Part shown: positions 21,921-58,305 of the stretch, piece after piece | How positions within the stretch are numbered: the stretch's first letter is position 1 | Layout: every line of letters begins with the position of its first letter | Assembly: GCA_021777565.1 (NCBI GenBank) | Contig: JAJYDJ010000002.1 | Location: 5,082 to 69,081, forward strand | DNA length: 64,000 nt | Source of the DNA: a bacterium | GTDB taxonomy: Bacteria > Patescibacteriota > Microgenomatia > Levybacterales > UBA12049 | Direction: 5' to 3' | Translations under genes and position numbers: made by a program | The notes under the pieces: model-generated | Told to the model about the DNA's origin: nothing | Database searches by the model: none | Seen by the model: the letters and a program-made list of their open reading frames with translations, nothing else

Positions 21921-22011
21921 AACAGCAAACTTATAAATGTGCTTGTCGTAAGCTCTTAAAAAGCGAAGAGAAAAGTAACGGTTTTTAAAACATGCGTTTT
22001 AAATCTACCAC

Positions 22012-24953
<2,942 letters not shown>

Positions 24954-25194
24954 GTAGATTTAAAAATTTATTGCATGTTAAAAAAACCTGCATTTTCTCT
25001 TCACTTTTTAAAGAGCTTACATATACTCATCTGGAACTAACCCTCCCTTGCTGGAGGGCTTGTTCCAAACAACATGTAAACATGTACGCCTTGGTGGACC
25101 GGAAGAGATTTCCCCCAAGGGGACTAGCTACTTCGTAGCGGCGTCCACAGGACTAGGGTCGCTGCCCGTCGCTTCTCATCTCTTCTGAGCAACC

Positions 25195-25270
25195 TGGTGG
25201 ACCGGAAGAGATTCGAACTCTCGACCTTCGCTATGCAAAAGCGACGCTCTACCAGCTAAGCTACCGGCCC
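25195..25270 (-). tRNA. tRNA-Ala (anticodon TGC), CCA encoded, upstream of 23S
   Basis: Acceptor gggccgg/ccggtcc with G3:U70. Anticodon stem tcgct/agcga with loop tttgcat. Genome-encoded CCA. Confidence 0.85.
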
Positions 25271-25442: not shown

Positions 25443-26633
25443 TTAGACCCCCATCCAGTCCTTTTTTAGAAGAGTGAAACGATCATCCTGGATCGCTTCT
25501 CGAATCTCTTTCATGAGATTCATCAAGAACGCTATATTATGGTAGCTCACGAGCGTATAGCCTTCTAATTCATGCGCTCTGAAGAGATGGTGGATATAGC
25601 CACGGGTATAGGTTTTACACACCATACACGAACACGTGGCATCAAGTGGTTCATGGCTATGGGTATAGTCAGCCTTCGTAATGTCCTGGCGCCAGCGATT
25701 TTCCTTCGTACCCGTTGGCCCGTGCACGAAAAAGACTCCCATACGGCCAAGTCTGGTTGGCGTGACGCAGTCAAAGGTATCCACACCCCGCTCTACCCCT
25801 TCAAAAATGTCATCAATATCCCCAATACCCAAGAGATGTCGTGGTTTCTCAAGAGAAATATGGCTCGTCGTCCAGTCTACTACTTCATAGAGGTTTTGCT
25901 TACTGGCGTGTGCTCCCCCAAGCGCAACCGCCTGGAAGTGTTCATCAACAAATTTCGCTGACTGAAGGCGTAAATCTTCAAACTTTCCTCCATGGGTCAC
26001 GCCGTACAAGAGCTGGTCGGTTCTAGTCTGTGCCGCCAGTGATCGAGTAAGCCAGCGCTCTGTGAGTTCTAGAGATTCTCTGGTCTTGTCATAGTCATAG
26101 AGGGGTGACTCCAGGTCATCAAACCCTACGATCAGATCAGCCCCAATCTTCTCTTGGATCGCGATCGAGCTCTCAGGCGAGAGCATGTGGGACGACCCAT
26201 CCAGGTGGGACTGAAAGAGGACGCCTTCCTCTGAGATCTTGTTGAGCCTTGGCTTAGCCTCCTTCTCATGGACGGCTTCTTCTTCTTTGAGGAATTTGAC
26301 CATGCCATGCTCGAGATTGACCCCGAGGGAAAACACTTGAAATCCCCCACTGTCAGTCATGGTTGGCCCATGCCACCCCATAAACTCAGCTACGCCCCCA
26401 AATTCATCAATAATATCCTCCCCTGGCCTCAAATGCAGGTGGTAGGTGTTGGCGAGCACGAGCTGGGCTCCCATATCACGCAAATCCCGAGGAGTGAGTG
26501 CTTTTACGCTCGCCTGGGTGCCTACGGGGAAAAATTGTGGCGTCTGTACCACGCCATGGGGTGTATGAATCTCACCCACACGGGCTTTGGTAGCTTTGTC
26601 TTGATGGATGATAGTAAAAGATACTGAAGTCAT
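25443..26633 (-). CDS. tgt: Queuine tRNA-ribosyltransferase
   Basis: Tgt motifs (LGIGDIDDIF, zinc site CSCMVCKTYTRGYIHHL). The start is moved to the internal Met (MTSVSF...) because the track ORF overlaps tRNA-Met. Confidence 0.85.
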   Translation of the reverse strand: MTSVSFTIIHQDKATKARVGEIHTPHGVVQTPQFFPVGTQASVKALTPRDLRDMGAQLVLANTYHLHLRPGEDIIDEFGGVAEFMGWHGPTMTDSGGFQVFSLGVNLEHGMVKFLKEEEAVHEKEAKPRLNKISEEGVLFQSHLDGSSHMLSPESSIAIQEKIGADLIVGFDDLESPLYDYDKTRESLELTERWLTRSLAAQTRTDQLLYGVTHGGKFEDLRLQSAKFVDEHFQAVALGGAHASKQNLYEVVDWTTSHISLEKPRHLLGIGDIDDIFEGVERGVDTFDCVTPTRLGRMGVFFVHGPTGTKENRWRQDITKADYTHSHEPLDATCSCMVCKTYTRGYIHHLFRAHELEGYTLVSYHNIAFLMNLMKEIREAIQDDRFTLLKKDWMGV

Positions 26634-26650
26634 GCTATTTCTATTCTTTT

Positions 26651-26727
26651 TGGTAGCAGGGGTGGGATTTGAACCCACGACCGCAGCGTTATGAATGCTG
26701 TGCTCTAACCAACTGAGCTACCCTGCC
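26651..26727 (-). tRNA. tRNA-Met (anticodon CAT, elongator type), CCA encoded
   Basis: Cloverleaf has loop ttcataa, D-arm gctcagttggttagagc and T-arm gtgggttcaaatcccac. It lacks the GGG/CCC anticodon-stem signature of initiators. Confidence 0.8.
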
Positions 26728-26809: not shown

Positions 26810-26877
26810 GCGCGGGGTAGTGTAAGGCGCACGTGAGGCTCATAATCTCACAGTCCACTTTCGATAGTGGCCCCGCA
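26810..26877 (+). tRNA. Initiator-like tRNA (CAT) with compressed D and T arms (68 nt; candidate tRNA-fMet or tRNA-like element)
   Basis: 5' CGCGGGG...CCCCGCA-A 3' gives a C1:A72 mismatch identical to E. coli tRNA-fMet ends. Anticodon loop is CTCATAA. The D-arm is only 13 nt and the T-loop 6 nt. Confidence 0.45.
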
Positions 26878-27216
26878 ACACAGATGCACTGACTGGAGCC
26901 ATTGCTGCCAGGTTGGTAATACCACAGGCTTCCCTTCAATCGTTTGTTCCCCACTCCCCGTTGCTACCAAGATACGCGTCTCATTGGGAAGACTTAAGAA
27001 GAGTTTATCTCGCGCCTGCTCTTGTACAAAGTTAGGGTCTTGTGCCTGATTCATCTGTGATTTGAGTTTTGCATTCTTTTGTTGCAGATACGCAAGATGG
27101 TCCCTCGCCTGCAAAACAATACTCCTTTTTTGCAGCAGAGAAATAATTTCTTGTGCAGAGCGAATTGCTGAGAAAACACAAAAGACAACAATAATAATAG
27201 TTATGACTTTTTTCAT
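26848..27216 (-). CDS. Septum formation initiator family protein (FtsB/DivIC-like)
   Basis: N-terminal TM followed by a coiled coil (LQARDHLAYLQQKNAKLKSQMNQAQDPNFVQEQARDKL). Confidence 0.6.
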   Translation of the reverse strand: MKKVITIIIVVFCVFSAIRSAQEIISLLQKRSIVLQARDHLAYLQQKNAKLKSQMNQAQDPNFVQEQARDKLFLSLPNETRILVATGSGEQTIEGKPVVLPTWQQWLQSVHLCCGATIESGL

Positions 27217-27257: not shown

Positions 27258-28112
27258 ATGATACAAATGCGCGACGCCCATAAACAGTTCAAGACCTTTC
27301 TTGAAAGCAAAAATAAATCCCGTGCCACCATTGTAGCCTACAACAAAGACATCGATCAAGTGATCGAGTTTATTGAAAAACAAGGAAAATCAACTGTTGA
27401 CCAGATCACAAAAGAAGACCTGGAAGGATTTTTAGCCCAACTCGCACAAGAAGGATATACCGTCAAATCTATCTCTAGAAAGATTAACTCTACCCGTACT
27501 TTCTATCGTTTCCTCAAAACCCATAATCTCACTGAAGAAGACCCATCAGCACTCTTAGAACACCCACGATATGAACTAGGACAGCCACGTATTTTGACTC
27601 CTATGGAATACCGCGCACTTCGTGATGCAACCCGAAATGATGCACGTATGCATGCCGTCATCCAGACACTTCTCCAGACTGGTATTCGTATCGGCGAGCT
27701 CGCAGAATTGAGACTCTCTGATGTGACCCCAGAGGGATTGACCATCCGACCTATGGAAAAACATGAAGCACGCCTCGTCCCCCTCAATCGTGCTGCACGT
27801 GAATCTATGGAAAAGTACATGAAAATTCGTCCAGAGGTCAAAGATGATCACGTATTTGTGACCAAATCAGGCAAACCATTCTTGATTCGTAACATCCGTA
27901 CTGCTGTGGAGCGCTATTTCCGCATTGCTGAGATCAAAGGGGCCAAGGTTAATGACCTTCGCCATACCTTTATCGCTCATCACATCAAGCACGGCGTCAA
28001 TCCACAATTTTTATCTAAGATCGTTGGCCACAAGCGTCTCACCACAACTGAGCGATATCTGGAATTTGTCCCAGATCGAGCCAAAGAAACCACCCACCTG
28101 TCAGAACTATAA
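27258..28112 (+). CDS. Tyrosine site-specific recombinase, XerC/XerD-like
   Basis: N-terminal SAM-like core-binding domain and a C-terminal catalytic domain with R...HxxR...Y (LRHTFIAHHIKHG...TTERYLEF). At 284 aa it matches Xer size. Confidence 0.8.
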   Translation: MIQMRDAHKQFKTFLESKNKSRATIVAYNKDIDQVIEFIEKQGKSTVDQITKEDLEGFLAQLAQEGYTVKSISRKINSTRTFYRFLKTHNLTEEDPSALLEHPRYELGQPRILTPMEYRALRDATRNDARMHAVIQTLLQTGIRIGELAELRLSDVTPEGLTIRPMEKHEARLVPLNRAARESMEKYMKIRPEVKDDHVFVTKSGKPFLIRNIRTAVERYFRIAEIKGAKVNDLRHTFIAHHIKHGVNPQFLSKIVGHKRLTTTERYLEFVPDRAKETTHLSEL

Positions 28113-28164
28113 AATTATTGCCTTCTGGTATAATATACCTAGAGTACATCGCTCGCAGAAATGC

Positions 28165-28195
28165 GGGCTTTTTTTATGGGAAATGCCTAGGAAGT
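28165..28195 (+). terminator. Candidate intrinsic terminator after the recombinase gene
   Basis: tcgcagaaatgcggg hairpin with a GNRA loop followed by cttttttta. Confidence 0.4.
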
Positions 28196-28495
28196 TAGTG
28201 ATGATGATAATTTAAGTTAAAATCTGGGGCGCGCAATTTTTGAGATTAAAACGCCTATCATAGGAGTGTAGAGACAAATTAAATATGTTAAGACTAAAAT
28301 TAACCATAATACTAAACTTCTTAATTATTCTGGATTGCTATGTCTTCCATGTAGGTAACGTTACACTGGATTACAAAGCATTATTACTAATTGCAATAAT
28401 AGTTGTCTTAGTACTTCCTTTTAAGGAATTTCATATCTGCTCATTATTTAGTGGGAAACTTTGGAAGAGTTAAGTAGCCTGTACTTTTTTGAGGG

Positions 28496-28568
28496 TGCGC
28501 CCGGGAGGACTCGGACCTCCGACGTGATGTGTATAAGACATCTGTTCTAGCCACTGAACTACGGGCGC
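28496..28568 (-). tRNA. tRNA-Ile (anticodon TAT, reads AUA)
   Basis: Cloverleaf has acceptor gcgcccg/cgggcgc, D gttc..gaac, anticodon stem gatgt/acatc with loop cttatac (U33 UAU A37). The T-loop is tccgagt, which is atypical. Confidence 0.7.
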
Positions 28569-28607
28569 AAAACTAGTGCCATTATACCTTTTTCAACCAC
28601 GACAATC

Positions 28608-28750
28608 TATATAGCGTGTCATTCTGAACGCAGTGCGCCGCTACTGTGTAGCTAGTACCCTTGGGGTGAAGAATCGTATTTTATAAATAGAGATCCTTCG
28701 CTCCATTTCATATTCGCTCAGGATGACACAGGATTGGGAGCCCGCTGTGC
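28608..28750. repeat. MITE-like repeat copy 1 (TIR GTCATTCTGAAC / GCTCAGGATGAC with an extra tandem right end GCTCAGAATGAC)
   Basis: Shares the internal module AGTGCGCCGCTACTGTGTAGC..CCCTTGGGGT..AAG.ATC with copy 2. Lies 12 nt past the stop of the 28762 gene and 39 nt from tRNA-Ile. Confidence 0.6.
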
Positions 28751-28761
28751 TCAGAATGACA

Positions 28762-31155
28762 TTATAGTTTTGCACGAAGTTGAATCTCGCGCTCTACTTC
28801 CATCGCATCACGACCAAATTTGGCTCGTGAAAGTTCTTTGAGTAGCTCTGCTACCTGTGGATTGTCTAGGGATTGCTCTCGTGCCCAATCTTTGTGCGTA
28901 TCAATCGAGAATGGTGTCACTGGGGCCCCATTCACCGTCGTTCTTACATACGCATTTTGTGCATCGATATTGATCAAATCCTGTTCTGAAAAGACTGGTT
29001 GGAACTCATGCTGCAAGAAATTGGCATCCTGAATACCCACACGGAAAGAGACTAAGGTACCTACGTTACCAAAGACAGCATTCTTCACTTCCTCATCCAT
29101 CTGCCCGATAAACTGATTGGCAACCGTTAAGTTAAGACGATACTTACGTGCTTCAGAGAAGATTTGTGAGAAGTCACTGGTTGCAAAGTTCTGGAATTCA
29201 TCGACATACAGGAAGAAGTCTTCACGCTGCTCTTCTGGGATATCCTGGCGCGACAGCGCGGCAGCCAAAATTTTTGGAATTAAGACGAGCCCTAAGAAGT
29301 TAGAATTTTCTTCCTGCAATTTTCCTTTAGACAAATTCACCAGAAGAATTTTTTTGTTATCCATCACATCACGGAATGTAAAGGCACTTTTTGACTGACC
29401 GATGATGTTTCGCATCAGCTTATTCGTTGTGAAACGGCTAAATTTGGACACGATGTAATCCAAGACTTCTGATTTATGGAAATCACTGGTCTGGGCAATC
29501 TGGTCTGTCCAATATCTCTTAATAATTGGGTCGGTCACTTTAGGTAACAGTTCCTGGACAAACTTTGAGTCAGTCAAAGCGCGTTGTACCTCGATGAACG
29601 TCCCACCTGGCTCACTCATGACCGTTAACATCACGTTTCGAATAGCGTGCTCCAGTCGGGGCCCGACAATACCGGTCTTGTGTGGATCATAGAGTTTGTA
29701 AAACAATCCGATGATGGATGACACCATGTAATGCTTCTCCATCTCCCCATATGCTTCCATAATGTTAAGCCCCATGGGACGATTTTCATCAGATGGATCA
29801 AACACAATGACATCATTTGCACGGCTTGCAGGGATACGAAGCAGTAGTTGTTCTATCAAGTCGCCGTGTGGATCAATTACACACACTCCACGCCCTGCCT
29901 CAATATCCTGCAAAGACAGTGATTTCAGCAGTTGTGATTTCCCTGTACCACTTTTACCGATAATATATAAATGTCTTCGTCTATCATCCAAGTCCACATA
30001 GACAGGTCTGGTCGCGCCGCGGAACGTACTGTTGCCGATGAATGTCCCTTGCGTTGCGATCTGTGTTGGGGCTGGAGCCCGCTTACTGGTTAGCCAGAAA
30101 ATATGCGGTGTCGTGATACTACGATTTGGGAAATGGAAAAGCGTGGCCAATTCTTCTGATGACATTACTGAAGTTTGATCATGCATTGGCCAGTAGCGAT
30201 ACACAAAATCTTCTACAACCAAGTTCTTGAAGAATGGTTTTACTTTCTTAAATGAGTTGGCACCACCGAACTGACCAAAGGTACCGGTGATATTTGAGAG
30301 GTGCTGATTGGCTCTTTCCTGAGACTGTGCTGATACCACCACGCGCACCACCACATCAAATCCAGGCTTACCGATCTTATTCTCTACTCCTTCGAGTTCT
30401 TTTGGGTCGACACCATATTTTGCTGTCTCTGGATTGGCCTCTCTTTTTTTTGTTTGGGAAATAAACTTGCGGCCAAACTTCTTCCACTTATTATCGGAGG
30501 CACTTACCATGATCTGAATCGCTGCTCCCTCCCCTTCTTCCATCTTGGCAAGGGTCGAGGTAAGAAGAGACATGCCATCCACCGGCATATCCTTAAAAAG
30601 CTTAATTGGCTGATATTTCTGCCCTTTTAATTTGAGCGTCGCAAAGGCCACCTTGCCTGTTTCTGAGAATATATTGTATTCATTTCCAATAATCCTCTTT
30701 TGTTGGGGATCTTTCTCATCAACGACCCGAATGTCCGCGTCTGGGTAGGTCGCATTGATCTGTTTCTCTACCAAATCACGCAATTTATTTGGAGTATAGA
30801 CATAGAACCTGATATCTGAGGGTTGGCCTACTATTTCAAATGACACAAATGGCTGTGGAGAGAGAAAAGCAAATCGTCCTCCCTTACGAAGTGAGGCAAG
30901 TCCTGCAAAAAGCTGTTCTGCGGCATCGATCTTATACTCATTCTCTCGAGGAACCGCAATTTGCAAAAGAACTGAGTCCAGTGACACTTGTTCACGCTTT
31001 CGATATTTATATAACAGGAGCAACACATATCCCCCGTAGTAACAAACCGTCCCAGTAACAACACAGGCAGCAAGCACGCCAACCGCAATCAAGAGTGCAT
31101 TAACCAGTGTTTCTGGATTAAAGATGAGTGGTAGGAGGTCGGTAATGTTATTCAT
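28762..31155 (-). CDS. Membrane-anchored FtsK/HerA/VirB4-superfamily ATPase (DUF87-type P-loop; T4SS-like or DNA-translocase-like)
   Basis: Two N-terminal TM helices. Walker A IIGKSGTGKSQLL followed by VIDPHGDL (HerA/VirB4-type). Walker B LYVDEFQNF. ARKYRLNLTVANQ arginine-finger-like region. Confidence 0.65.
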   Translation of the reverse strand: MNNITDLLPLIFNPETLVNALLIAVGVLAACVVTGTVCYYGGYVLLLLYKYRKREQVSLDSVLLQIAVPRENEYKIDAAEQLFAGLASLRKGGRFAFLSPQPFVSFEIVGQPSDIRFYVYTPNKLRDLVEKQINATYPDADIRVVDEKDPQQKRIIGNEYNIFSETGKVAFATLKLKGQKYQPIKLFKDMPVDGMSLLTSTLAKMEEGEGAAIQIMVSASDNKWKKFGRKFISQTKKREANPETAKYGVDPKELEGVENKIGKPGFDVVVRVVVSAQSQERANQHLSNITGTFGQFGGANSFKKVKPFFKNLVVEDFVYRYWPMHDQTSVMSSEELATLFHFPNRSITTPHIFWLTSKRAPAPTQIATQGTFIGNSTFRGATRPVYVDLDDRRRHLYIIGKSGTGKSQLLKSLSLQDIEAGRGVCVIDPHGDLIEQLLLRIPASRANDVIVFDPSDENRPMGLNIMEAYGEMEKHYMVSSIIGLFYKLYDPHKTGIVGPRLEHAIRNVMLTVMSEPGGTFIEVQRALTDSKFVQELLPKVTDPIIKRYWTDQIAQTSDFHKSEVLDYIVSKFSRFTTNKLMRNIIGQSKSAFTFRDVMDNKKILLVNLSKGKLQEENSNFLGLVLIPKILAAALSRQDIPEEQREDFFLYVDEFQNFATSDFSQIFSEARKYRLNLTVANQFIGQMDEEVKNAVFGNVGTLVSFRVGIQDANFLQHEFQPVFSEQDLINIDAQNAYVRTTVNGAPVTPFSIDTHKDWAREQSLDNPQVAELLKELSRAKFGRDAMEVEREIQLRAKL

Positions 31156-31672
31156 TGGTGTTCCCTCTTATTTTAAACACTTTTGAGAAAAGTGTCGCGA
31201 GCCAGGTAAGAGAATTAGTGACAGATGGCTTTTTGCCCAGTGCCTGCATGACTTGTTGTGCTTTTGCTTGTGACTGAGCAGAAGGGACAGGGGTTGATAC
31301 AGGAGCCGCGGTCTGCACTGCTGGTATTGCATGCGATTGGTGACCGGCAAGATCTTGCAACTTACTCTCAAGAGCTTCCACCTCTTGCTGTCGTTTCTCC
31401 TCACTCTCCTCGGCCTTTTCCTTATCAGCAGTCTCCTGTGCTACAAATACTTCCTGAACGATGTCTTGAAACGCTGATTGAAACTCTGGAGAGACAGCAG
31501 GCAGAGGCCCTGATTCTGGATTTAAATATTTTATCGATGTATTGGGATCATTATCTGGGACATCAACTGGTATCGGTACTGTTGGGTCCTGGAACACCCT
31601 TACACTGGTATCGGTCTGTAAAGACGCAGCATGTTGCACCTGAGAAGGAGCTGTCTGGCCTGTGTTTTCCAT
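31148..31672 (-). CDS. Acidic hypothetical protein, translationally coupled to the ATPase
   Basis: Its stop overlaps the ATPase start (31148 vs 31155). Glu-rich coiled-coil segment. No known domain. Confidence 0.45.
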   Translation of the reverse strand: MENTGQTAPSQVQHAASLQTDTSVRVFQDPTVPIPVDVPDNDPNTSIKYLNPESGPLPAVSPEFQSAFQDIVQEVFVAQETADKEKAEESEEKRQQEVEALESKLQDLAGHQSHAIPAVQTAAPVSTPVPSAQSQAKAQQVMQALGKKPSVTNSLTWLATLFSKVFKIRGNTNE

Positions 31673-31777
31673 ATCACTATCATAGCAATCGCCTGCCTAG
31701 AAGTACAGTATACTGATCTGAAGTGATCCATTGACACATTTTGTTTCTCTTGTACAATAAAACTAACAAGTTAACAA

Positions 31778-31932
31778 AGATCCGGGGTTCAGATCCCGGT
31801 CGATCAGGGGAAACGTGGTGAAATTCCACGGCTGTGCCGCAACTGTAAAGCCAGACTGCCTGAATCTTTGCATTGTCCTCGAGCACAGGATGTACTGTCC
31901 AAGACCTTCTCGCTCAGCAGAAGGTTTTTTTG
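31778..31932 (+). promoter_or_regulatory. Cobalamin (AdoCbl/B12) riboswitch with a terminator expression platform
   Basis: Conserved core GGGAAACGTGGTGAAATTCCACGGCTGTGCCGCAACTGTAAAGCCAGACTGCCTGA (GGTGAAATTCC, CCGCAACTGT, B12-box-like AGCCAGACTGCC). It ends in hairpin ccttct/agaagg plus T7, 25 nt before the ATG at 31957. Confidence 0.75.
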
Positions 31933-31956
31933 TATCTAAGGCTTGAGGGAAAGCAT

Positions 31957-32526
31957 ATGTACAAAAAAATCTTTTCGCCACTGAGTGTTCTTGCGTTTGT
32001 CAGTTTTTTACTGGCAGGCAGCTCCTTCTATATTCTTAGTGCACATCCGAAAGTTCTTGAGGCGACGATCGAAAAAACCATTACGGTTACAACAACACCT
32101 GTCCCCACACAAGCTACCCAAACTATTACTGCTATTGCATCTGCGCCAACAAGTCTGCCCCAACCGACAACAACTCAGTCGACAACGACTATCGTGACGC
32201 AACATACCACCACCTCAACAACTGTCAGCCAGTCAGGTCCTTATGTCGCACTCAGCCTTCATGTCGGGAGTAATCTAACCACCTGGGCAGTAAGCCTCTC
32301 TGGCACCCAGACTCCTTGCTCTATTCTGCAAGCAGCCAAAGATCAAGGGAAACTCTCCTCGCTTACCATCCAGCACTACGGTGCTCCGCTCAACAGTGAT
32401 TACGTAAAAGAGATAAATGGCAATTCTGACAATTGGACATTTACGCTCAATGGAGACAGTAAAAACATGGGATGCTCTTACTATTCACTCAACTCAGGGG
32501 ATACTGTCGTCTGGAGTTATCAATAA
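31957..32526 (+). CDS. DUF4430-domain secreted protein (beta-domain homologous to transcobalamin / intrinsic factor; putative B12-binding)
   Basis: N-terminal TM/signal. C-terminal QAAKDQGKLSSLTIQHYGAPLNSDYVKEINGNSDNWTFTLNGDSKNMGCSYYSLNSGDTVVWSY is DUF4430-like. Immediately downstream of the B12 riboswitch. SD gaggga is correctly placed. Confidence 0.65.
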   Translation: MYKKIFSPLSVLAFVSFLLAGSSFYILSAHPKVLEATIEKTITVTTTPVPTQATQTITAIASAPTSLPQPTTTQSTTTIVTQHTTTSTTVSQSGPYVALSLHVGSNLTTWAVSLSGTQTPCSILQAAKDQGKLSSLTIQHYGAPLNSDYVKEINGNSDNWTFTLNGDSKNMGCSYYSLNSGDTVVWSYQ

Positions 32527-34412
32527 CGTTTTATATGAAGCAATCAATGATAAAAAAAACAACAAGTGTCATCCTGAACATAGTGCGCCGCTACTATGTA
32601 GCAAGTGCCCTTGGGGTAAAGGATCTTTATTTAAAAAGAAGAGATTCTTCGCTCAGATTCACAAGCGCTCAGAATGACAGCATCCGACTGCTGGGAATCA
32701 TATTTTTTGCTTTATTTTTCTTAGCATCTGCTACACCGGCACTTGCTGACACCATCACCGTACATGTCGCAATAATCGATAGCACCAAAACAATTTTTTA
32801 TGGCAATGTAAATGTCGATAGTACTGGCTGCAGCGTAAAAGACACTACCAATGTAGTTCACACCTTCACTTCCCCCCTGACTGTCTGCGCCTTGGATAAA
32901 GCAGCACAAACCGGGAATTTCATGTATCAAATTGAGAATTCTTCTTTTGGGCTTTTCATCCAAGGGATTGCCAGTGACAGTGGCGCCGCTGATTTCTCTA
33001 CCTACTGGTCCTACGATGCCAGTCGAACCCTTGCCAATGTAGGTGTCGCTGATAGCACGGCGATCTTACAAAATGGTGATTGGTTGTTTTTTCATTTTGA
33101 CCCAATGGATAATAAGACGAAGGCAATTCAGTATGGCCTCGCCTATCTCAAATCACAGCAGGATAGTACCGGTAAGATCGCAGGATATGATTTCTCAACA
33201 TCACAGTTTGATGGCGCGAGCTCCTGGGCGACGCATGCCTTTGTGGCAAATGGAGTAAGTGATTTGAGCACGATCAAACTCGCCAGTGGCACCTCCCTTC
33301 TTGATTACCTGTCTTCACATAATCCAACACTCAGCGACAAAACAACTGACTGGGCCAAACATATTCTGGCCATTGTGACCGCAGGACAGGACCCATACAC
33401 CTTTGGTGGTATCGATTCAGTGAGTCAGCTTGAGACCTATACTAACAACAACCAACTCGGGAGCACAACCGCACTCAATGATGATGTGTTTGGCCTGCTT
33501 GCGCTCACTGCGGCACACGTTAGTACTGATAGCGCTGTCCTTAACGATTCTTTAAACTTTGTTCTGACACATCAGAATGGTGATGGCGGCTTTAGCTACT
33601 CGGCAACAGGAACCAGTGATGTCGATGATAGTGCCTCTACCCTCATGGCACTGGTGGCAGTGGATAAAAGTGGCCTTTCCAGCGCCTCTCTCTCAGCAGC
33701 TATTGTTCAAACCCAGCAATACTTGCTTGGCAAACAAAATGCCGATGGAGGGTTCCCTTCCGACCCATCATACGATCCCTCTTCCAATACTTCCAGTACT
33801 ACGTGGGCACTGATGGCACTACGATCACTTGGCCTAAGTGATAGTCATGTCACAACAGCAGAAAGCTTTATCGAGAAGAATCAATATCTTGGAGATGGCT
33901 CATTTGCCTGGCAGCTTGGAAGTCCAGCTGCAACAGGAGACACGGACACCTCTTCCTATGCCCTGATGGCCTTAGCGGGCAAATCATGGCCGATGACTAT
34001 CTATCAAGGCGCTATTCCAGCCCCAACACCTACCAGCACCCCATCTGGCACCATCACACCGACTCCTACTCTGACACCAACACCAACTCCTGTACCCAAC
34101 ACCCCCACCCCTACGCCTACACCCCAATCAACAACCACAACGACGACGACATATACCACTACCTACGTCACGCCAACGCCAGGCCCGACAGTAACTGCAC
34201 CAGTGGTATCAGCATCGACACTTTTGTCACCTACCCCAACCACAGCACCACTTCCTGGTGTGCTTGGAGCACAGACAATGACGTTGCCACAAAAAGTTAT
34301 TACCACTCAAACACAAGGATTCTCCTTCCCTAGCATGTTCCTGGGAGCAGGTTTTGCCTACCTGAGTATGTTTGCCCTGGAGTTAATGAAGAAATTTTCC
34401 CTATTCAAATAA
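32472..34412 (+). CDS. Secreted alpha/alpha-toroid repeat protein (prenyltransferase / squalene-cyclase-like repeats) with a Thr/Pro linker and C-terminal hydrophobic anchor. Start codon uncertain.
   Basis: Repeats include GDGGFSYSATGTSDVDDSASTLMALVAV, QNADGGFPSDPSYDPSSNTSSTTWALMAL and GDGSFAWQLGSP..DTSSYALMALAG. Signal-like LLGIIFFALFFLASATPALA follows the MITE-encoded segment. PTPT-rich linker. Confidence 0.6.
   Translation: MLLLFTQLRGYCRLELSITFYMKQSMIKKTTSVILNIVRRYYVASALGVKDLYLKRRDSSLRFTSAQNDSIRLLGIIFFALFFLASATPALADTITVHVAIIDSTKTIFYGNVNVDSTGCSVKDTTNVVHTFTSPLTVCALDKAAQTGNFMYQIENSSFGLFIQGIASDSGAADFSTYWSYDASRTLANVGVADSTAILQNGDWLFFHFDPMDNKTKAIQYGLAYLKSQQDSTGKIAGYDFSTSQFDGASSWATHAFVANGVSDLSTIKLASGTSLLDYLSSHNPTLSDKTTDWAKHILAIVTAGQDPYTFGGIDSVSQLETYTNNNQLGSTTALNDDVFGLLALTAAHVSTDSAVLNDSLNFVLTHQNGDGGFSYSATGTSDVDDSASTLMALVAVDKSGLSSASLSAAIVQTQQYLLGKQNADGGFPSDPSYDPSSNTSSTTWALMALRSLGLSDSHVTTAESFIEKNQYLGDGSFAWQLGSPAATGDTDTSSYALMALAGKSWPMTIYQGAIPAPTPTSTPSGTITPTPTLTPTPTPVPNTPTPTPTPQSTTTTTTTYTTTYVTPTPGPTVTAPVVSASTLLSPTPTTAPLPGVLGAQTMTLPQKVITTQTQGFSFPSMFLGAGFAYLSMFALELMKKFSLFK
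32578..32688. repeat. MITE-like repeat copy 2 (GTCATCCTGAAC ... GCTCAGAATGAC), embedded in the 5' end of the 32472 ORF
   Basis: About 85% identical to copy 1 over the shared module. It is read through in frame (SVILNIVRRYYVASALGVKDLYLKRRDSSLRFTSAQND). Confidence 0.6.
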
Positions 34413-34495
34413 TCTCATTTCGCGCTCTGCAACAAGTGCGTCAAACTTTTTTTATGAGCGATTTTAGGGGGAACCGAAGAGAAAGTACAGAGAAT

Positions 34496-35041
34496 TTAGC
34501 CTTTCCAAATCACTTCTTCCTGACCTTCTGTGTGATTCACCAACCGGGCACAGGTAAAAAGATAGTCTGACAGACGATTGAGGTACTGTAATATCTCAAG
34601 AGCAACTGTTTCTTTCTCATGTAGTGCCACACTACTTCGCTCTACTCGTCGAGACACAGCACGCGCATATTGCAGCAGTGCCGCTGCTTTCGCTCCACCA
34701 GGGAGAATAAAATTCTTCAGCTCAGCAAGCTTACCGGTCATTGTGTCGATTTCTTTTTCAAATTCACTGGTACGGGCTGTTAATGTCTCTAGAAACGCTG
34801 TATCAATAGGCGCCACAGGATTGGCAAGAACTGCGCCAATTGCAAAAAGATCCTTCTGTACCTGTGAGAGCATGACGCGTTGAGAATAGGACTTGGGAAG
34901 TTCGCTTATGACAACCCCCAAAAGACTGTTAAGCTCATCTATATCCCCATAGGTTTGAAGTCTGATATGCGCTTTTGAAACGCGAGAGTTATTAAAGAGT
35001 GCAGTTGTTCCCTTATCTCCAGTTTTGGTATAGATAGGCAT
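34496..35041 (-). CDS. ATP:cob(I)alamin adenosyltransferase, PduO type
   Basis: MPIYTKTGDKGTT...ILPGG...AALLQYARAVSRRVER. Start taken at the internal Met. Confidence 0.8.
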   Translation of the reverse strand: MPIYTKTGDKGTTALFNNSRVSKAHIRLQTYGDIDELNSLLGVVISELPKSYSQRVMLSQVQKDLFAIGAVLANPVAPIDTAFLETLTARTSEFEKEIDTMTGKLAELKNFILPGGAKAAALLQYARAVSRRVERSSVALHEKETVALEILQYLNRLSDYLFTCARLVNHTEGQEEVIWKG

Positions 35042-35073
35042 ACAGGCGTGAAGTGCGTCAAGCATGTGTAGGA

Positions 35074-35610
35074 TTATTTACTAACCTTTGCAATTGCTTG
35101 CCCTTTTACTAAGTGTAACACGAGCTCATAACTGCCAAACAGTACCCCTGCATAGAAGAGATCGCCAACGAGGGTGTTTCTAAAGAATGGTACTCCCATC
35201 GCGTAGCATGTCATGAGTCCTGAGAGAGTGTGTGGATACATATTCCCCATCACCCAGACACCGAAATTCGTTACGGTAAAGAAAATAACTGAAGACAGGA
35301 GTGTCACGCCAGTGATGTTGATAAAGGACTTGTGATTTCTTACAAGAAGTCCCAGAAGCCCACTCACAAGGAAACTTCCATACACAAATGGCATAACGTT
35401 ATGGAACCCGAGAAATATGTCTGAGAGAAACATCGCAACCAGTGGAACGATAAGTGCATACTTCTTGTTCAAGTATACTCCACCAAACAGTGCCATAGCA
35501 GCAATTGGAGCAACATTTGGCATGTGTGGGACTAGTCGCAAGATGACTGCGAGAGCGATAAATAGAAGTGGATTGATAAGCTTTTTCATAGGACTTGTGC
35601 GATTATACAT
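35074..35610 (-). CDS. Small 6-TM membrane protein, ECF-transporter S-component-like (candidate cobalamin S-component of CbrT/BtuM type)
   Basis: About 178 aa with six predicted TM helices. Sits between pduO and nrdJ. No ECF A/T genes are adjacent. Confidence 0.45.
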   Translation of the reverse strand: MYNRTSPMKKLINPLLFIALAVILRLVPHMPNVAPIAAMALFGGVYLNKKYALIVPLVAMFLSDIFLGFHNVMPFVYGSFLVSGLLGLLVRNHKSFINITGVTLLSSVIFFTVTNFGVWVMGNMYPHTLSGLMTCYAMGVPFFRNTLVGDLFYAGVLFGSYELVLHLVKGQAIAKVSK

Positions 35611-35616
35611 GAGTGT

Positions 35617-35682
35617 GTCATTCTGAGCAACGCGAAGAATCTTGCTTTATAAAGAGTGATCCTTCGATTCTCTCAGGACGAC
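35617..35682. repeat. MITE-like repeat copy 3 (short form, GTCATTCTGAGC ... TCTCAGGACGAC)
   Basis: Same TIRs and internal CGAAGAATC...GATCCTTCG palindrome but lacking the AGTGCGCCGCTAC module. Lies 6 nt upstream of the 35610 start codon and 19 nt past the nrdJ stop. Confidence 0.55.
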
Positions 35683-35701
35683 AAAATATATTTGTTATGA
35701 G

Positions 35702-38140
35702 TTAGCATTCGCTATAGCCGCAACTATAACATTTCTTGCATCCTTCTTCGAAGACAAATGCTGCTTCACCACACTTTGGGCAAATATCCATCTTGCGCTT
35801 AAACATAGGCATCTGTGCATGACCGTTGAGTACTGGCGCTTCTTGTGCATCCAAGGTTAATTGTGCTGGTGCAGACGCTCCTGCAAGTGTCTCTGATGCA
35901 TCTTGTACAGTAAAGAATCCATAATGCATGGAGAGTGCACGTGCTACGGCATCAGGAAGACTACGCACACGATTTGGACCAAAGCCGACTGAGCGACCTC
36001 CACCAATACCTTGCAGCTGTTCGACAATCTCTCGTGCTCTTTCTCGTGCTGGCATGTGGTTACCAAATCTGAGATTGGTAGAGATAAGCCGACCCAATGC
36101 TTCAGCCATCGCCGCTACTTCACTCCCTGCTTTGCCAATGGTGACAAAGACTTCAAATGGGTTTCCTTCACTGTCTTGATTAATCGTGACAAAGGCATGT
36201 CCCAGTGGTGTCTCGATCTTATACGTTGCCCCTTCTACTTTGACGGGACGAGGCATAATAACTGCTGGCTGTGACTGTACTGGTGCTGCTTCTACTGTTT
36301 TCTCTTTTTTACTGGTTCCAAGGTTGAGTACCTGTTCATTCTTGCATCCATCACGGAATACCGTAATACCGCGGCATCCTGTCTCCCATGCCAGCATGTA
36401 TGACTTTTTAATGTCATCAACACTTGCCTCATTTGGCAAGTTAATTGTTTTGGACACACCATTATCTGTGTATTTTTGAAATGCCGCCTGCATTCTGACA
36501 TGCCACTCAGGGGTAATTTCATGCGCCGTACCAAATGCTGCGCGTACATCTGCTGGAATTTCATCAATATCACGCACAGTTCCGTGCTCTGCTACTTTGT
36601 CCATGAGTTCTTGTGAATAAAATCCTCGCTCTTTTGCGATCTTTTCAAAGAGTGGATTTACAAAGGTAAGTGTACGATTCTCACTTTTCACGATGTGCTG
36701 GTATGCGATGGCAAAGAGAGGTTCACAGCCGCCAGATGTTGCCGCAAAGATACCAATTGTCCCTGTTGGGGCAATGGTGGTGACTGTGGCATTACGAATT
36801 GGGGTGTCTTTGTAAATTGAGAACTTGCACAGAGGGAATGCGCCACGCTCTTTGGCCAGAAGTGCTGACTCTTTGTGCCCTTCTTCATTAATAAGCTTCA
36901 TGATTTGTTCTGCCAAACTGAGTGCTTCTTCACTGTCGTATGGGATACCCAACTCTACCAGCATGTCTGCCCATCCACCAATTCCAAGGCCGATACGGCG
37001 GATATTACGCACCGTGTCCTCAATCTGTGGCATGGGGAATGGATTCATCTCAATGACATCATCCAAAAGTCTCACTGCGGTGCGGGTCGCCTCTGCGATC
37101 CCATTCCAGTCGACTTTCCCGTCTTTGACAAAGTAGTTCAAGAAGATACTTCCCAAGTTACAGGCATCAAAAGGATAGAGTGGCTGCTCACCGCATGGGT
37201 TGGTACTTTCGACTTCCCATCCTTCTTTGCGGATTGGATTGGCACTACTCTGGTTAATGCGATCAATAAAGACCAGTCCTGGATCACCTGTTTTCCATGC
37301 TGACTCTGCAATTTCGTTCCAGACATCACGTGCAGGAAGCTTGCCAACTGACTGCTTGGTGTGTGGGTCGATCAAGTCATATTCCCCACCCTTTTCAAGT
37401 GCGTCCATGAATTTGTCAGTGATTGTGACTGAAATATTGAAGTTACTAATACCTGATCCATCGTCCTTGCAGTGAATAAACTCAAGAATATCTGGATGAT
37501 CTACGCGAAGAATGCCCATGTTGGCACCTCGTCGCATACCACCCTGCTTAATTTGCTGGGTTGCTTCGTTATAAATCTTCATGAAAGAGACTGGTCCGGA
37601 CGCGACACCCATGGTTGACTGTACGCGGGCACCTTTTTGACGAAGACGTGAGAATGAAAAGCCTGTTCCCCCACCACTTTTATGAATAAGTGCTTGATAC
37701 TTTACGCCATCAAAAATTCCTTCAATCGTATCCTCTACTGGAAGGACATAACAAGCGCTGTATTGCAGATGGTTATGTTTTCCGGCATTTGCCAGTGTTG
37801 GAGAATTTGGTAAGAACTTTCGAGAAAGCATCAAACCATAGAAAACACGTGCCTGATCAATCACTTCCTGACGGGTTTTCCCTTGTTTTGCTTCACCACT
37901 TGCCAGTTCCCATGCAACACGCCAGCACATCTGCTCGACGGTTTCAATTGGTTTGCCATCTGCATCTTTGAGGAAATATCTTTCTTCAAGCACTTTAATT
38001 GCCTGCTTGGTCCATGGTTCATGAACAATGTCCGTTGGCACCTCTGGGCGAGGTCCGACCAACTTCTCAACCTCCTCAACCATCTCGTCGTAGGAGAGAT
38101 GGTCCCATTGTATTTTTTTATTTTGTGTTTGTTTTGCCAT
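35702..38140 (-). CDS. nrdJ: Adenosylcobalamin-dependent ribonucleotide reductase (class II)
   Basis: Class II RNR core (…STNPCGEQPLYPFDACNLGS…). C-terminal zinc ribbon CPKCGE...CKKCYSCGYSEC. 812 aa. Confidence 0.9.
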   Translation of the reverse strand: MAKQTQNKKIQWDHLSYDEMVEEVEKLVGPRPEVPTDIVHEPWTKQAIKVLEERYFLKDADGKPIETVEQMCWRVAWELASGEAKQGKTRQEVIDQARVFYGLMLSRKFLPNSPTLANAGKHNHLQYSACYVLPVEDTIEGIFDGVKYQALIHKSGGGTGFSFSRLRQKGARVQSTMGVASGPVSFMKIYNEATQQIKQGGMRRGANMGILRVDHPDILEFIHCKDDGSGISNFNISVTITDKFMDALEKGGEYDLIDPHTKQSVGKLPARDVWNEIAESAWKTGDPGLVFIDRINQSSANPIRKEGWEVESTNPCGEQPLYPFDACNLGSIFLNYFVKDGKVDWNGIAEATRTAVRLLDDVIEMNPFPMPQIEDTVRNIRRIGLGIGGWADMLVELGIPYDSEEALSLAEQIMKLINEEGHKESALLAKERGAFPLCKFSIYKDTPIRNATVTTIAPTGTIGIFAATSGGCEPLFAIAYQHIVKSENRTLTFVNPLFEKIAKERGFYSQELMDKVAEHGTVRDIDEIPADVRAAFGTAHEITPEWHVRMQAAFQKYTDNGVSKTINLPNEASVDDIKKSYMLAWETGCRGITVFRDGCKNEQVLNLGTSKKEKTVEAAPVQSQPAVIMPRPVKVEGATYKIETPLGHAFVTINQDSEGNPFEVFVTIGKAGSEVAAMAEALGRLISTNLRFGNHMPARERAREIVEQLQGIGGGRSVGFGPNRVRSLPDAVARALSMHYGFFTVQDASETLAGASAPAQLTLDAQEAPVLNGHAQMPMFKRKMDICPKCGEAAFVFEEGCKKCYSCGYSEC

Positions 38141-42152: not shown

Positions 42153-44336
42153 ATGCCCAAGTTAAAAGACAAACTTAACCCCCTGGCCATCCTACATTTA
42201 GAAAGATATTCCACCAAGACAAAAGTGCTTGCTTTGATTGGTATTTGTGTTCTCCTGACAGTTCTTCTCTTTGTTTTTTTACTTCGTGATCTTCCCTCCC
42301 CAACCAAACTCGCAGGCTCCAATCAACCACAATCAACCAATATTTATGATCGTAATGGCACACTCCTCTATTCTTTTTATGAAGGACGCGACCAAACATA
42401 CATCCCGCTGAGCCAAATTCCTAAAATTGCCCAGGAAGCAACAATTTCTATTGAAGATCGCGAGTTTTATCACCATGGAGCTATTGATATCAGAGGGATA
42501 GGACGTGCTATTGTCTCTATCATCTTGCATCACCGTATTGAGGGTGGATCAACGATCACCCAACAGCTGGTCAAAAACTCACTCCTCTCCTCAGAGCAGA
42601 CAATCACTCGAAAAGTCAAAGAAGCGATTCTTTCTTTCGCCACAGAGATTCTCTATCCAAAAGATAAAATTCTTGAACTGTACCTCAATGAGATCCCCTA
42701 TGGTGGCACCGTCTATGGTATCGAGGCTGCTTCAGAAACATTCTTTGGGAAACATGCCAAGGACTTAACCCTGGCTCAGGCAGCACTTTTGGCTGGACTG
42801 CCTGAATCACCAACCCAACTTTCTCCGTTTGGTGCGCATCCTGAACTTGCCAAACAGAGACAACTGCTAGTTTTGCAGGCCATGCAGGAAGAAGGATACA
42901 TCACCAAAGCCCAACAAGCCTCAGCTGCTGCAGAGCCGCTGCAGTATAAGGATATTTCCAAAGCAATTCAGGCACCTCACTTTGTGTTCTACGTCAAAGA
43001 TTATCTTGACAATAAATATGGTGAAAAGATGGTTGAGCAAGGAGGGTTAAACGTTACTACCTCACTTGATTTGAATATTCAGGATTTTGCTCAAACAACC
43101 GTTGCCTCAGAAATCGCCAAGCTCAAAGGGTACCACGTAACCAATGGTGCCGCCTTGGTGACCAGACCAGGTACAGGCGAAGTTCTGGCTATGGTTGGGT
43201 CAAAGGATTATTTCGATCAAGACATTGATGGGAATGTTAATCTTACTACCTCCAGGCGCCAACCAGGTTCTTCTATCAAACCAATTAATTATGCCGTTGG
43301 GCTTATGAAGGGATATACTGCGGCAACCCCATTTGTAGACGAACCTATTTGCTTCCCTGGTGGACCTGATGGCAAACAGTACTGTCCTATGAACTATGAC
43401 TTTGGGTGGCACGGCGTGCAACCAATGCGCTATGCACTGGGCAACTCATTTAACATCCCTGCTGTTAAAATGCTTGAGCTTAACGGGATTGATTCTATGC
43501 TGGCAACCGCTTCCGCAATGGGTATCACCACACTCACTGATGCTAACAGATATGGCCTCGCACTTACCCTTGGATCAGGAGAAGTCATGATGACTGACAT
43601 GAATACTGCCTATGGCGTTTTTGCCAATTCCGGCTATCGTATTGATCTGCATCCTGTCCTTAAGATTACTGACAGAAATGGGAAAGTGCTTGAGTCCTAC
43701 ACTCCCCCACCAAGTCCCATTTTTGGCAAACAAGTACTCCCATCAGGTGTGACCTTTATTATATCCAGCATGCTTTCTGATAATGGCGCGCGTCTTATCG
43801 ACTTTGGCTCCAACTCTTCTCTGGTAGTTAAAGGGCACACGGTCGCGGCCAAAACCGGAACTACTAATGACTTTAAAGATAACTGGACATTTGGCTACAC
43901 CAAAGACTTTGTCGTAGGAACGTGGGTTGGTAACAATGATGACACGCCGATGGGAAGCATTGCCTCAGGTATCACGGGTGCCGCACCAATTTGGAATAAG
44001 ATCTTCACCTACCTTCTGCAGGACAAGCCGAATGAACCATTCGTGCAACCACCAAGCGTGATCCAGAAATCTATTTGTGCGCTGTCTGGGCTTTTGCCTG
44101 ACCCAGCAAATCCATGCCAGACAAGATTTGAATATTTCATCAAGGGCACAGAGCCAACAAAGATCGAACAACTTAAGCAAAATGTTGCTATTGATACCAC
44201 AACCAACGATTTGGCAAAACCAGGACAGACGGTCAATGTACAAATGAAGGATGAGTCAGTACTCACTGACCCAACAGGTGATAAATATTGCTTAAGTTGC
44301 CCACATCCAACACCAAGTCCAACTCCTGGACAATAA
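42153..44336 (+). CDS. Class A penicillin-binding protein (PBP1A; transglycosylase plus transpeptidase)
   Basis: GT51 motifs (EDREFYHHGAID, GGSTITQQLVKN). TP motifs SSIKP (SxxK) and KTGTTND. Start moved to the internal Met (MPKLKDKL). Confidence 0.85.
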   Translation: MPKLKDKLNPLAILHLERYSTKTKVLALIGICVLLTVLLFVFLLRDLPSPTKLAGSNQPQSTNIYDRNGTLLYSFYEGRDQTYIPLSQIPKIAQEATISIEDREFYHHGAIDIRGIGRAIVSIILHHRIEGGSTITQQLVKNSLLSSEQTITRKVKEAILSFATEILYPKDKILELYLNEIPYGGTVYGIEAASETFFGKHAKDLTLAQAALLAGLPESPTQLSPFGAHPELAKQRQLLVLQAMQEEGYITKAQQASAAAEPLQYKDISKAIQAPHFVFYVKDYLDNKYGEKMVEQGGLNVTTSLDLNIQDFAQTTVASEIAKLKGYHVTNGAALVTRPGTGEVLAMVGSKDYFDQDIDGNVNLTTSRRQPGSSIKPINYAVGLMKGYTAATPFVDEPICFPGGPDGKQYCPMNYDFGWHGVQPMRYALGNSFNIPAVKMLELNGIDSMLATASAMGITTLTDANRYGLALTLGSGEVMMTDMNTAYGVFANSGYRIDLHPVLKITDRNGKVLESYTPPPSPIFGKQVLPSGVTFIISSMLSDNGARLIDFGSNSSLVVKGHTVAAKTGTTNDFKDNWTFGYTKDFVVGTWVGNNDDTPMGSIASGITGAAPIWNKIFTYLLQDKPNEPFVQPPSVIQKSICALSGLLPDPANPCQTRFEYFIKGTEPTKIEQLKQNVAIDTTTNDLAKPGQTVNVQMKDESVLTDPTGDKYCLSCPHPTPSPTPGQ

Positions 44337-58217: not shown

Positions 58218-58305
<88 letters not shown>

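Follow-up and report, generated by a model that had tools for sequence, protein, structure and literature searches.

Three palindromic elements in a Levybacterales contig as probable copies of a widespread REP-type repeat

A stretch of 64,000 nucleotides from a bacterium of the Patescibacteriota (Microgenomatia; Levybacterales; UBA12049; GenBank assembly GCA_021777565.1, contig JAJYDJ010000002.1, forward-strand positions 5,082 to 69,081) contains three short palindromic elements, one inside a gene and two between genes, and raises the question of what kind of sequence these elements are. We call the whole 64-kb stretch the window; positions given for the three copies, ours as well as those of an earlier note on this DNA, refer to it, and our census of copies covers the window only. 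The earlier note had described the elements as a new MITE-like family (MITE, miniature inverted-repeat transposable element), with each copy flush against a gene boundary. Our analysis gives good reason to think that they instead represent a palindromic, non-autonomous repeat of the repetitive extragenic palindromic (REP) type that is very widespread and falls in or next to the CGTC/TGTC-tagged REP superfamily.

That three palindromic elements exist is confirmed by the sequence. Their ends read TGTCATYCTGARC and GYTCAGRATGACA, and the pattern GTCATYCTGARC, with at most one mismatch, matches eight times in the window against 1.33 expected, a number that 0 of 100 shuffles attain; six of the eight matches are the ends of copies 1–3. 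These terminal inverted repeats (TIRs) had been given as 12 bp long. Conservation of the flanking T/A in 82–84% of family members extends them to 13 nt (TGTCAT...ATGACA). The boundaries of the two long copies also needed revision, since 28608-28750 for copy 1 and 32578-32688 for copy 2 are 10 nt off in opposite directions (Table 1). Copy 1 has two right ends: a complete one at 28716-28728 and another, at 28749-28761, that is part of an additional, truncated arm head.

Copies 1 and 2 are as similar as had been claimed, with 83% identity across 72 nt in a repeat search and alignment, and the nested palindromes quoted for the elements are present. Their left arms run GTCATYCTGAAC, then GCAGT or ATAGT, then a 33-nt insertion and then GAAGRATC, and their right arms are 11 nt longer than the canonical form. 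Copy 3, a 68-nt palindrome (repeat I1), had been taken for a deletion derivative. It in fact has the canonical architecture of the family, and copies 1 and 2 are derived forms in which a variable distal hairpin is expanded. The long-form module AGTGCGCCGCTACTRTGTAGC has no exact match in the JGI metagenomes, and the long form thus appears to be lineage-specific. Neither a looser arm pattern nor an unfiltered covariance model found further copies in the remaining 57 kb of the window.

Each element is an inverted doublet of hairpin arms of about 25 nt whose tags point outward, 50–120 nt in total, and in outline reads TGTCATYCTGAGC..GAAGRATC-spacer-GATYCTTC..GCTCAGRATGACA. The arm (as an oligonucleotide, TGTCATCCTGAGCGAAGCGAAGGATCTC) can be numbered G1 T2 C3, A4 T5 Y6 C7 T8, G9 A10, R11 C12, G13 N14 A15, G16 Y17, G18 A19, A20 G21 R22 A23 T24, C25, and comprises an unpaired 5′ tag (T/C)GTC, a 5-bp stem ATYCT/AGRAT, a 2×2 internal loop of tandem G·A/A·G, a distal hairpin and a tail C(T/C). 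Among unique arm contexts the base before GTC is T in 363 (84%), C in 51 (12%), G in 13 and A in 7, and the tag preceding the stem is TGTC in all six arms of the window. The tail opens with the C of ...ATC, followed by T in 82% and C in 15%. G9, A10, G18 and A19 are invariant or almost so, including where the scan left them free, and both strands of the internal loop stand in a Py-GA-Pu context, which favours sheared tandem G·A pairs. The distal hairpin is free in sequence and length: most often it is GC-GNA-GC, and in longer arms the segment between the two GA dinucleotides is an unrelated self-complementary hairpin of 2–10 bp (for example GGCCTGCCA...TGGCAGGCC). The short form presumably corresponds to the very stable d(GCGAAGC) DNA mini-hairpin, which we treat as a lead towards a single-stranded DNA (ssDNA) form and not as a result. 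Isolated arms fold as ....(((((..((...))..)))))... with DNA and RNA parameters alike. Read from the sequence, two of the three frames are open on each strand of the canonical arm. A hammerhead or K-turn reading of CUGA...GA was rejected by inspection, CUGA-N-GA and the 3-nt bulge both being absent.

The two variable stem positions of an arm covary. Of 491 arms, 479 are concordant at Y6 and R22 (T..A 240, C..G 239), a count for which the scan pattern permitted all four combinations; the corresponding tally over unique arm sequences is 134, 112 and 11. The discordant arms are T·G in seven cases and C·A in five, and a third state, G6-C22, also exists. Across 47 unique canonical arms, the pair 11–17 is GC in 29, AT in 12 and GT in 3, the pair 12–16 is CG in 38, TA in 3 and TG in 2, and the loop is G-N-A in 30 and A-N-A in 13. 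A test free of scan bias is offered by 61 right arms, which the pattern fixed only at positions 18–25 and left free at 1–17. In this set 97.0% of cells pair, as opposed to 90.1% in shuffles, and the covariation score is 0.287 compared with 0.148 (0 of 500 shuffles for either measure); slid controls reach 18–54% pairing. The individual pairs of these arms are UA 30 and CG 27 at 6–22, GC 39 and AU 16 at 11–17, AU 59 and GU 2 at A4–T24, and UA in 61 of 61 at T5–A23.

We find that the arms, rather than the whole palindromes, behave as units. Among 149 typed unique elements the arm combinations are 38 C/C, 81 C/T and 30 T/T, the 1:2:1 ratio to be expected if arms combine independently. The covariation that the earlier note proposed to look for is accordingly present within arms and absent between them. 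When 28 doublets with two canonical arms are scored against both structures, the two-hairpin (intra-arm) form is 98.5% paired with a covariation score of 0.282, whereas the single long (inter-arm) hairpin is 93.9% paired with a score of 0.131 and is broken at the variable positions in 9, 7, 5 and 4 of 28 cells. Doublets can even be mixed across sister families, ATTGC/GCAAT arms pairing with ATTCT/AGAAT or ATTCC/GGAAT arms. It is the hairpin of a single arm that is conserved as a unit, and not the long palindrome. As a free strand, the whole element prefers the long hairpin thermodynamically (RNA −23 to −59 kcal/mol, z −3.0 to −5.3).

This arrangement bears on a proposal that each copy keeps a G·U pair at its inner palindrome on the strand transcribed by the neighbouring genes. 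The G·U pair is there in all three copies, but the outer TIR pair is a C·A mismatch on the same strand, so neither strand is favoured. Each window copy joins one T/A-type arm to one C/G-type arm, and its long hairpin therefore contains one wobble and one C·A mismatch on either strand. The pair also loses its value as a hint of selection on RNA, given that the variable base covaries with the TIR base of the same arm and that the arms vary independently.

Sister arms of the forms GTCATTGCGAG...GCAATC and GTCATTCCGA...GGAATC, which have the same tag, stem and GA architecture and occur in mixed doublets with the present family, were seen at L050 (minus strand, ~7319), L049 (4246), L092, L066 and L089.

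Table 1. Coordinates of the three elements, their arms and the gene that contains copy 2 (positions in the window)
Feature	Position	Strand	Evidence
Copy 1, overall	28617-28761		
Copy 1, complete doublet TGTCATTCTGAAC ... GCTCAGGATGACA	28617..28728	.	Sequence, TIR matches, repeat D8, folds
Copy 1, left arm, T/A type, with 33-nt expansion GCGCCGCTACTGTGTAGCTAGTACCCTTGGGGT at the distal-hairpin site	28617..28675	+	Arm regex, arm folds
Copy 1, right arm, C/G type, with 11-nt expansion	28690..28728	-	Covariance model, 38.5 bits, E 1.5e-6
Copy 1, additional arm head, truncated, TGTCATTCTGAGCACAGCG and 15 nt of filler	28730..28761	-	Covariance model, only 8.6 bits
Copy 2, complete doublet, in frame in the 5′ end of the toroid gene	32567..32679	.	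Sequence, homologue comparison
Copy 2, left arm, C/G type, with 33-nt expansion as in copy 1	32567..32625	+	Arm regex, folds
Copy 2, right arm, T/A type, with 11-nt expansion	32641..32679	-	Covariance model, 38.4 bits, E 1.6e-6
Copy 2 host gene, secreted toroid/DUF4430-like protein, signal-peptide n-region with 37 element-encoded residues	32535..34412	+	
Copy 3, canonical short doublet of two 25-nt arms and a 16-nt spacer	35616..35683	.	Palindrome I1, folds
Copy 3, left arm, T/A type, canonical	35616..35643	+	Covariance model, 37.1 bits, E 3e-6; fold ....(((((..((...))..)))))...
Copy 3, right arm, C/G type, canonical except for GTCGTC	35656..35683	-	Covariance model, 38 bits, E 1.9e-6

The same element occurs far beyond this genome. 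A scan for GTCATYCTGARC-N(3-33)-GAAGRATC-N(6-30)-GATYCTTC returned 100 matches on 47 viral contigs in IMG/VR and at least 120 element-bearing contigs in a species-representative genome collection, so that the search of other genomes suggested earlier did bring up further copies. Among the matches listed, more than 20 bacterial phyla are represented and several hosts are cultured isolates; Pedobacter nototheniae, Flavobacterium sp. ST-75 and Mucilaginibacter sp. SG564 are isolates rich in the element. The host groups include Acidobacteriota, Nitrospirota, Nitrospinota, Chloroflexota, Bacteroidota, Ignavibacteria, Chlorobiales, Calditrichaeota, Gemmatimonadota and Omnitrophota; Patescibacteria (Komeilibacteria, Curtissbacteria and Saccharibacteria), Planctomycetota, Verrucomicrobiota, Armatimonadota, Bacillota and Actinomycetota (Bifidobacterium); and Spirochaetota, Synergistota, Cyanobacteria/Gastranaerophilales, Pseudomonadota (alpha- and gamma-) together with "delta"-proteobacteria, and Campylobacterota (Helicobacter). 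The viral contigs are tailed phages that encode portal and HK97-type major head proteins, and the elements lie between their structural genes; a reading of the small viral contigs as Microviridae with ssDNA origins was rejected on account of these proteins. A BLAST search of plasmids with a window copy gave no match, and with the consensus doublet we obtained no match in phages and four weak, unannotated matches in plasmids. With this range, and with the fit to a described REP superfamily considered below, the description as a new family is not supported.

Several of these loci hold the element in unusual density. Tandem arrays whose copies differ only in loops or spacers occur at L019 (8519-8969; five element copies with an 87-nt period), L036 (8924-9478) and L113 (3237-4891), and in a metagenome-assembled genome (MAG) of Aminivibrio a HicB antitoxin gene is surrounded by about 20 element termini in 1.6 kb. 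A further feature, which we term "head stutter", consists of truncated arm heads of 12–18 nt (GTCATYCTGARC) that precede a complete arm of the same orientation and lie 6–36 nt upstream of it. We count 35 unique cases in the family, and in some of them two or three heads follow one another in tandem; examples are found at L016, L047, L053, L104 and L113 and, in the window, at 28730-28761 of copy 1.

The nearest described relatives are the REPs of the CGTC superfamily. According to Di Nocera, De Gregorio and Rocco (2013; PMC3733652), these carry a CGTC tag that is often TGTC or CCTC, a fully paired stem of 8–9 bp whose first two positions are A-T complementary, a loop of 4–5 nt and a 3-nt tail with the consensus CCA. 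Dimers, often heterodimers, predominate, some units are intragenic, and the families are not associated with transposases. Four families were found in five phyla, several of them in one genome, at tens to thousands of copies per genome; CGTC-1 equals the Neisseria dRS3 repeat and the Rickettsia palindromic element (RPE) RPE-6, and CGTC-4 equals RPE-4. A supplementary table lists VIPAKAGI and DSRFRGND as peptides encoded by CGTC-1. These peptides correspond to GTCATTCCCGCGAAAGCGGGAATC, which has the same GTCATTC...GAATC frame as the present arm.

The present family shares with the superfamily an unpaired (C/T)GTC tag, a stem that starts with A-T and T-A and a short tail that opens with C. Like the superfamily, it has in-frame intragenic copies, including in IleS and MurB in both data sets, and no transposase association, and several families reside together in one genome; arms of the CGTC-1 type occur in the same loci as those described here. 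It likewise forms inverted dimers, with 174 convergent arm pairs (152 unique) and 81 heterodimers among 149 typed, although the predominance of dimers is biased upward by a scan pattern that required a partial second arm. The encoded peptides are VILSEAKNL and ILRFAQND, as opposed to VIPAKAGI and DSRFRGND for CGTC-1, and the range of more than 20 phyla plus phages among the matches listed exceeds the five phyla of the published families. Compared by text and peptides, membership in the superfamily appears well supported, and the present family may be the same as one of the four CGTC families. Literature searches with the sequence and with the encoded peptides returned only unrelated primers, or nothing.

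RPEs, too, are palindromes that are inserted in frame in protein genes and translated, as copy 2 would be with its 37 additional residues. Their peptides (VIPWLDHGI for RPE-4, VIPAKAGI for RPE-6) differ from VILSEAKNL, the stem sequence differs, and they are restricted to Rickettsia, whereas the present family is pan-bacterial; RPE-1 is moreover longer than the present element. The dRS3 repeat shares the frame of tag, stem and tail, and arrays of the present element are seen at the three loci named above, but its stem is ATTCCC/GGGAAT, unlike that of the present arm.

Copy 2 provides evidence that such elements enter genes. As the earlier note had recognized, it lies inside the 5′ end of a gene. 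This gene is prenyltransferase-like (alpha-alpha toroid), and the GTC...GAC segment of copy 2, 111 nt long, adds 37 codons to it in frame and without a stop. The protein begins MIKKTTS-[VILNIVRRYYVASALGVKDLYLKRRDSSLRFTSAQND]-SIRLLGIIFFALFFLASATPALA/DT. Ten homologues with 45–51% identity have ordinary short signal peptides (for example MKKIILILLTLFLVATQKAYA/AD) in which the 37 residues are missing, and copy 2 is evidently a true insertion relative to them. Because no in-frame ATG, GTG or TTG lies between copy 2 and the hydrophobic core of the signal peptide, copy 2 must be translated for the signal peptide to be kept, and we infer that it is translated as part of the host protein. Two independent annotations call the gene through copy 2. 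A correction to the gene model follows from this comparison, in that the 37 extra N-terminal residues of the toroid protein would be element-encoded and not ancestral. A protein search with the 37-aa peptide gave no candidate. Two independent assemblies of the same organism end contigs 17–33 nt from the right end of copy 2 (L001 at window position 32697, L002 at 32712), a weak hint of polymorphism at this site or of short-read assembly failing at the palindrome or repeat. Homologues of a protein neighbouring the copies carry names such as Saccharimonadales and Levyibacteria, and the window has the look of a small genome of the Patescibacteria type; the same protein is encoded on a 953-kb contig.

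Insertion into reading frames is not confined to this gene. We found eight frames without a stop, each at least 200 aa long, that run through whole elements; five of these are confirmed genes, with in-frame elements in IleS (of a Rickettsiales MAG), an NtrC-like regulator, EamA, TatD and MurB; the Rickettsiales IleS has a second, single-arm-like insert. A phage site offers a direct comparison of presence and absence: it is filled in L034 and empty in the orthologous position of L012 and L013, which read TAAGGAGGAAATATG. This is the only orthologous filled/empty pair found, and the phages, at 71% identity, are too divergent to set the boundaries of the insertion. Together with copy 2, this site upholds the part of the original description that called the elements small, non-coding and of a mobile type.

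If these elements are REP-type repeats, a simple scheme may account for them. The arm hairpin, probably extruded as ssDNA, would be recognized by an enzyme that acts in trans to copy the element, and the element would be nearly neutral once inserted. In transcripts it could fold into a strong hairpin with a possible role, known from REPs, in the protection or processing of 3′ ends, and where it lands in a tolerant open frame it would simply be translated, as presumably in copy 2, where the signal peptide gains 37 residues.

Other explanations assign the mobility or the persistence of the elements to different causes. A classical MITE, that is, a deletion derivative of an insertion sequence (IS) moved by a DDE transposase that binds TIRs of 12–13 bp, would account for the conserved TIRs, the size of 50–120 nt and the multiple dispersed copies, and MITEs such as Correia/NEMIS, RUP, ERIC and Nezha are likewise small, non-coding and bounded by TIRs, often co-transcribed and sometimes in frame. 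MITEs have target-site duplications and a parent IS, however, and the present family shows neither. Flank matches of 2–5 nt are at chance under three boundary definitions in 150 elements, no duplication is seen at the three window copies, and flanks are random beyond the conserved T and A; in 170 element-bearing loci there is no ORF-bearing element and no IS or transposase with the same ends. The supposed TIR is one half of an intra-arm hairpin, at its variable base it covaries with its own arm's inner palindrome and not with the other TIR, and single arms and cross-family arm pairs exist. We consider an origin as a MITE in this strict sense very improbable. Anatomy speaks for a REPIN in the strict sense, a doublet whose movement depends on a RAYT (Y1/HUH tyrosine transposase) present in single copy and able to bind the hairpin of the arm together with its 5′ tag, as in the GTAG REPs: the elements combine a tag with an imperfect hairpin, form inverted doublets with tags outward, lie downstream of genes and lack target duplications, and the G/A-N-A loop closed by C-G in 43 of 47 unique arms points to ssDNA. 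Against this stand the TGTC tag and the lack of any RAYT association in the loci sampled. None of the 3883 open reading frames (ORFs) from the 170 loci contains the HUH and Y-x-x-x-NP motifs common to all published RAYT and TIRYT sequences, and the best 80 metagenome loci of RAYT/TIRYT-type Y1 genes (275 kb; one Y1 subgroup with 3 kb of flank) contain no arm of the family. In the published survey none of the CGTC families proved to be associated with Y1 genes (PMC3733652), and REPIN-RAYT systems are mainly proteobacterial, far narrower in range than the present family. A RAYT-driven REPIN is in our view unlikely. Nor did other enzymes stand out, since all-against-all clustering of the 3883 ORFs recovered only phage modules and housekeeping genes and no transposase, and the ORFs bracketed by two elements in the 170 loci were ordinary (SBP_bac_5, glycosyltransferase, GH25, HicB and MerR).

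The elements might also be kept by the host as RNA elements, such as 3′-end stabilisers, processing sites or attenuators, rather than spread as selfish DNA. The strength of the whole-element RNA hairpins given above agrees with such a role, as do copies that lie just past stop codons and between co-directional genes, in the window and after phage structural genes, and REPs are reported to occur mostly downstream of ORFs and to act in RNA (PMC3733652). Termination at the copies is not borne out by a sequence scan: an intrinsic terminator was rejected, as copies 1–3 lack a U-tract and none of them is called in the terminator scan. Searches against Rfam 15, at the gathering threshold for the whole window and at E<=5 for 28.4–35.9 kb, assign the elements to no family. 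Wobble pairs are not preferred as selection on RNA predicts, the discordant arms being T·G and C·A in similar numbers, heterodimers carry one wobble and one mismatch per strand, and a parasite would account better than a regulator for sequences that are nearly identical across phyla and for in-frame insertions in housekeeping genes. On balance we judge a host-selected RNA element improbable. The arms could, lastly, persist as landing pads at which phages or IS110-type recombinases integrate. The dRS3 repeat of Neisseria is an integration target of this kind for filamentous prophage and IS110, the present arms resemble dRS3/CGTC-1 in frame, and the elements are common in tailed-phage contigs. 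In the sampled loci, no integrase or IS110-type gene splits or adjoins an element, and being a target fails to explain how arms multiply or enter coding frames, which makes this explanation a remote one.

A copy of a REP-type repeat in or near the CGTC superfamily thus remains the reading we prefer, and several observations weigh against it. The evidence for mobility is indirect and no mobilising enzyme was found in the loci sampled. Phage L017 has two adjacent elements where L027 has one, and another L017 copy has the same spacer, and the same left flank over about 30 nt, as the second of these; some phage copies were apparently copied with 15–30 nt of flank. Copying in phages carries flank along or proceeds by recombination, and recombination fits these cases as well as transposition does. 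All three window copies fall within 7 kb, in a count that covers the 64-kb window only; a horizontal island as the cause of this clustering was rejected, there being no GC anomaly. The link to the CGTC superfamily rests on the shared GTCATTC...GAATC frame and on co-occurrence, not on a formal phylogeny, and the arms depart from the published form in detail. The canonical arm has nine stacked positions, two of them G·A, with a 3-nt loop (or eight with a 5-nt loop); a G/A-N-A triloop or an entire variable hairpin takes the place of a 4–5-nt loop, many arms having a longer distal hairpin; and the commonest tail is CTC, not CCA.

It is also possible, though we would put it forward only tentatively, that the arm, with its TGTC tag, ATYCT, tandem G·A, free hairpin and AGRAT-C, defines an undescribed and possibly the most widely distributed REP family, spread by a broadly distributed ssDNA-hairpin enzyme or a phage-borne activity. 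The invariant tag, the 5-bp stem and the G·A platform would then be the recognition site, and such an enzyme would explain the multiplication of orphan CGTC-type REPs, dRS3 and RPEs. What multiplies these repeats has been a question since at least 2013, and a spread over most phyla and phages without a visible transposase sharpens it. The many natural sequence variants are on offer for testing candidate enzymes. A structure-based definition, including a calibrated covariance model, is now available for a repeat that annotators meet as spurious peptides (VILSEAKNL, ILRFAQND) and contig breaks, and the three odd palindromes of the window are given an explanation.

The positions of the copies relative to genes had been read as non-random. 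Copy 1 was described as 12 nt from a stop codon; it directly adjoins (0 nt) the TAA (28762-28764) of a 797-aa HerA/TraG-like gene, and lies between this stop and tRNA-Ile(TAT), 47 nt from the latter. Copy 3 does stand upstream of a start codon, at 5 nt from the first ATG of a DUF6580 gene or 26 nt from the start set in another annotation, and not at the 6 nt given before; it begins 18 nt past the nrdJ stop and takes up 68 of the 91 nt between the two genes. In so compact a genome any intergenic insertion comes to lie near a gene boundary, and we therefore do not read these positions as targeting.

The surroundings of copy 1 (27258-31672) consist of a XerC/D-like tyrosine recombinase gene (27258-28112), tRNA-Ile, the copy itself, the 797-aa HerA/TraG-like ATPase and a 174-aa ORF of unknown function, and could be the remnant of an element integrated beside a tRNA gene.

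The copies lie in and beside a cobalamin-related cluster at 31731-38140. At its head stand a promoter close to consensus (TTGACA-16-TACAAT, 31731-31758), an AdoCbl-II riboswitch at 31791-31867 and, at 31901-31928, a hairpin resembling a terminator; next come the gene for a DUF4430 protein and that for the secreted alpha-alpha-toroid protein, which has a DUF4430-like N-terminus of its own. We take this pair to resemble the two domains of transcobalamin-type B12 binders. The other strand encodes a PduO-type adenosyltransferase, DUF6580, a class II ribonucleotide reductase (nrdJ) and NrdR.

Elsewhere in the window, 23S and 5S rRNA genes occupy 21801-25270 with tRNA-Ala(TGC) upstream; no 16S gene lies nearby, and the rRNA operon thus appears to be unlinked. 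A tRNA-guanine transglycosylase gene (25443-26678) comes after the rRNA genes. Two tRNA-Met genes lie on opposite strands, at 26651-26727 and 26811-26879, the latter only 69 nt long, and ARAGORN reports tRNA-Ile(TAT) and tRNA-Ser(ACT), with unusual anticodons, at 28493-28569 and 58218-58305. A GC-rich segment (54%) at 8344-9249 contains at least 13 copies of a degenerate 9-nt periodic CCACCACCN repeat, and its minus strand probably codes for a repeat protein of Gly-rich or collagen-like type. Paralogous gene segments at 43833-44002 and 46204-46376, 2.37 kb apart and with 79–89% nucleotide identity, look like a tandem gene duplication.

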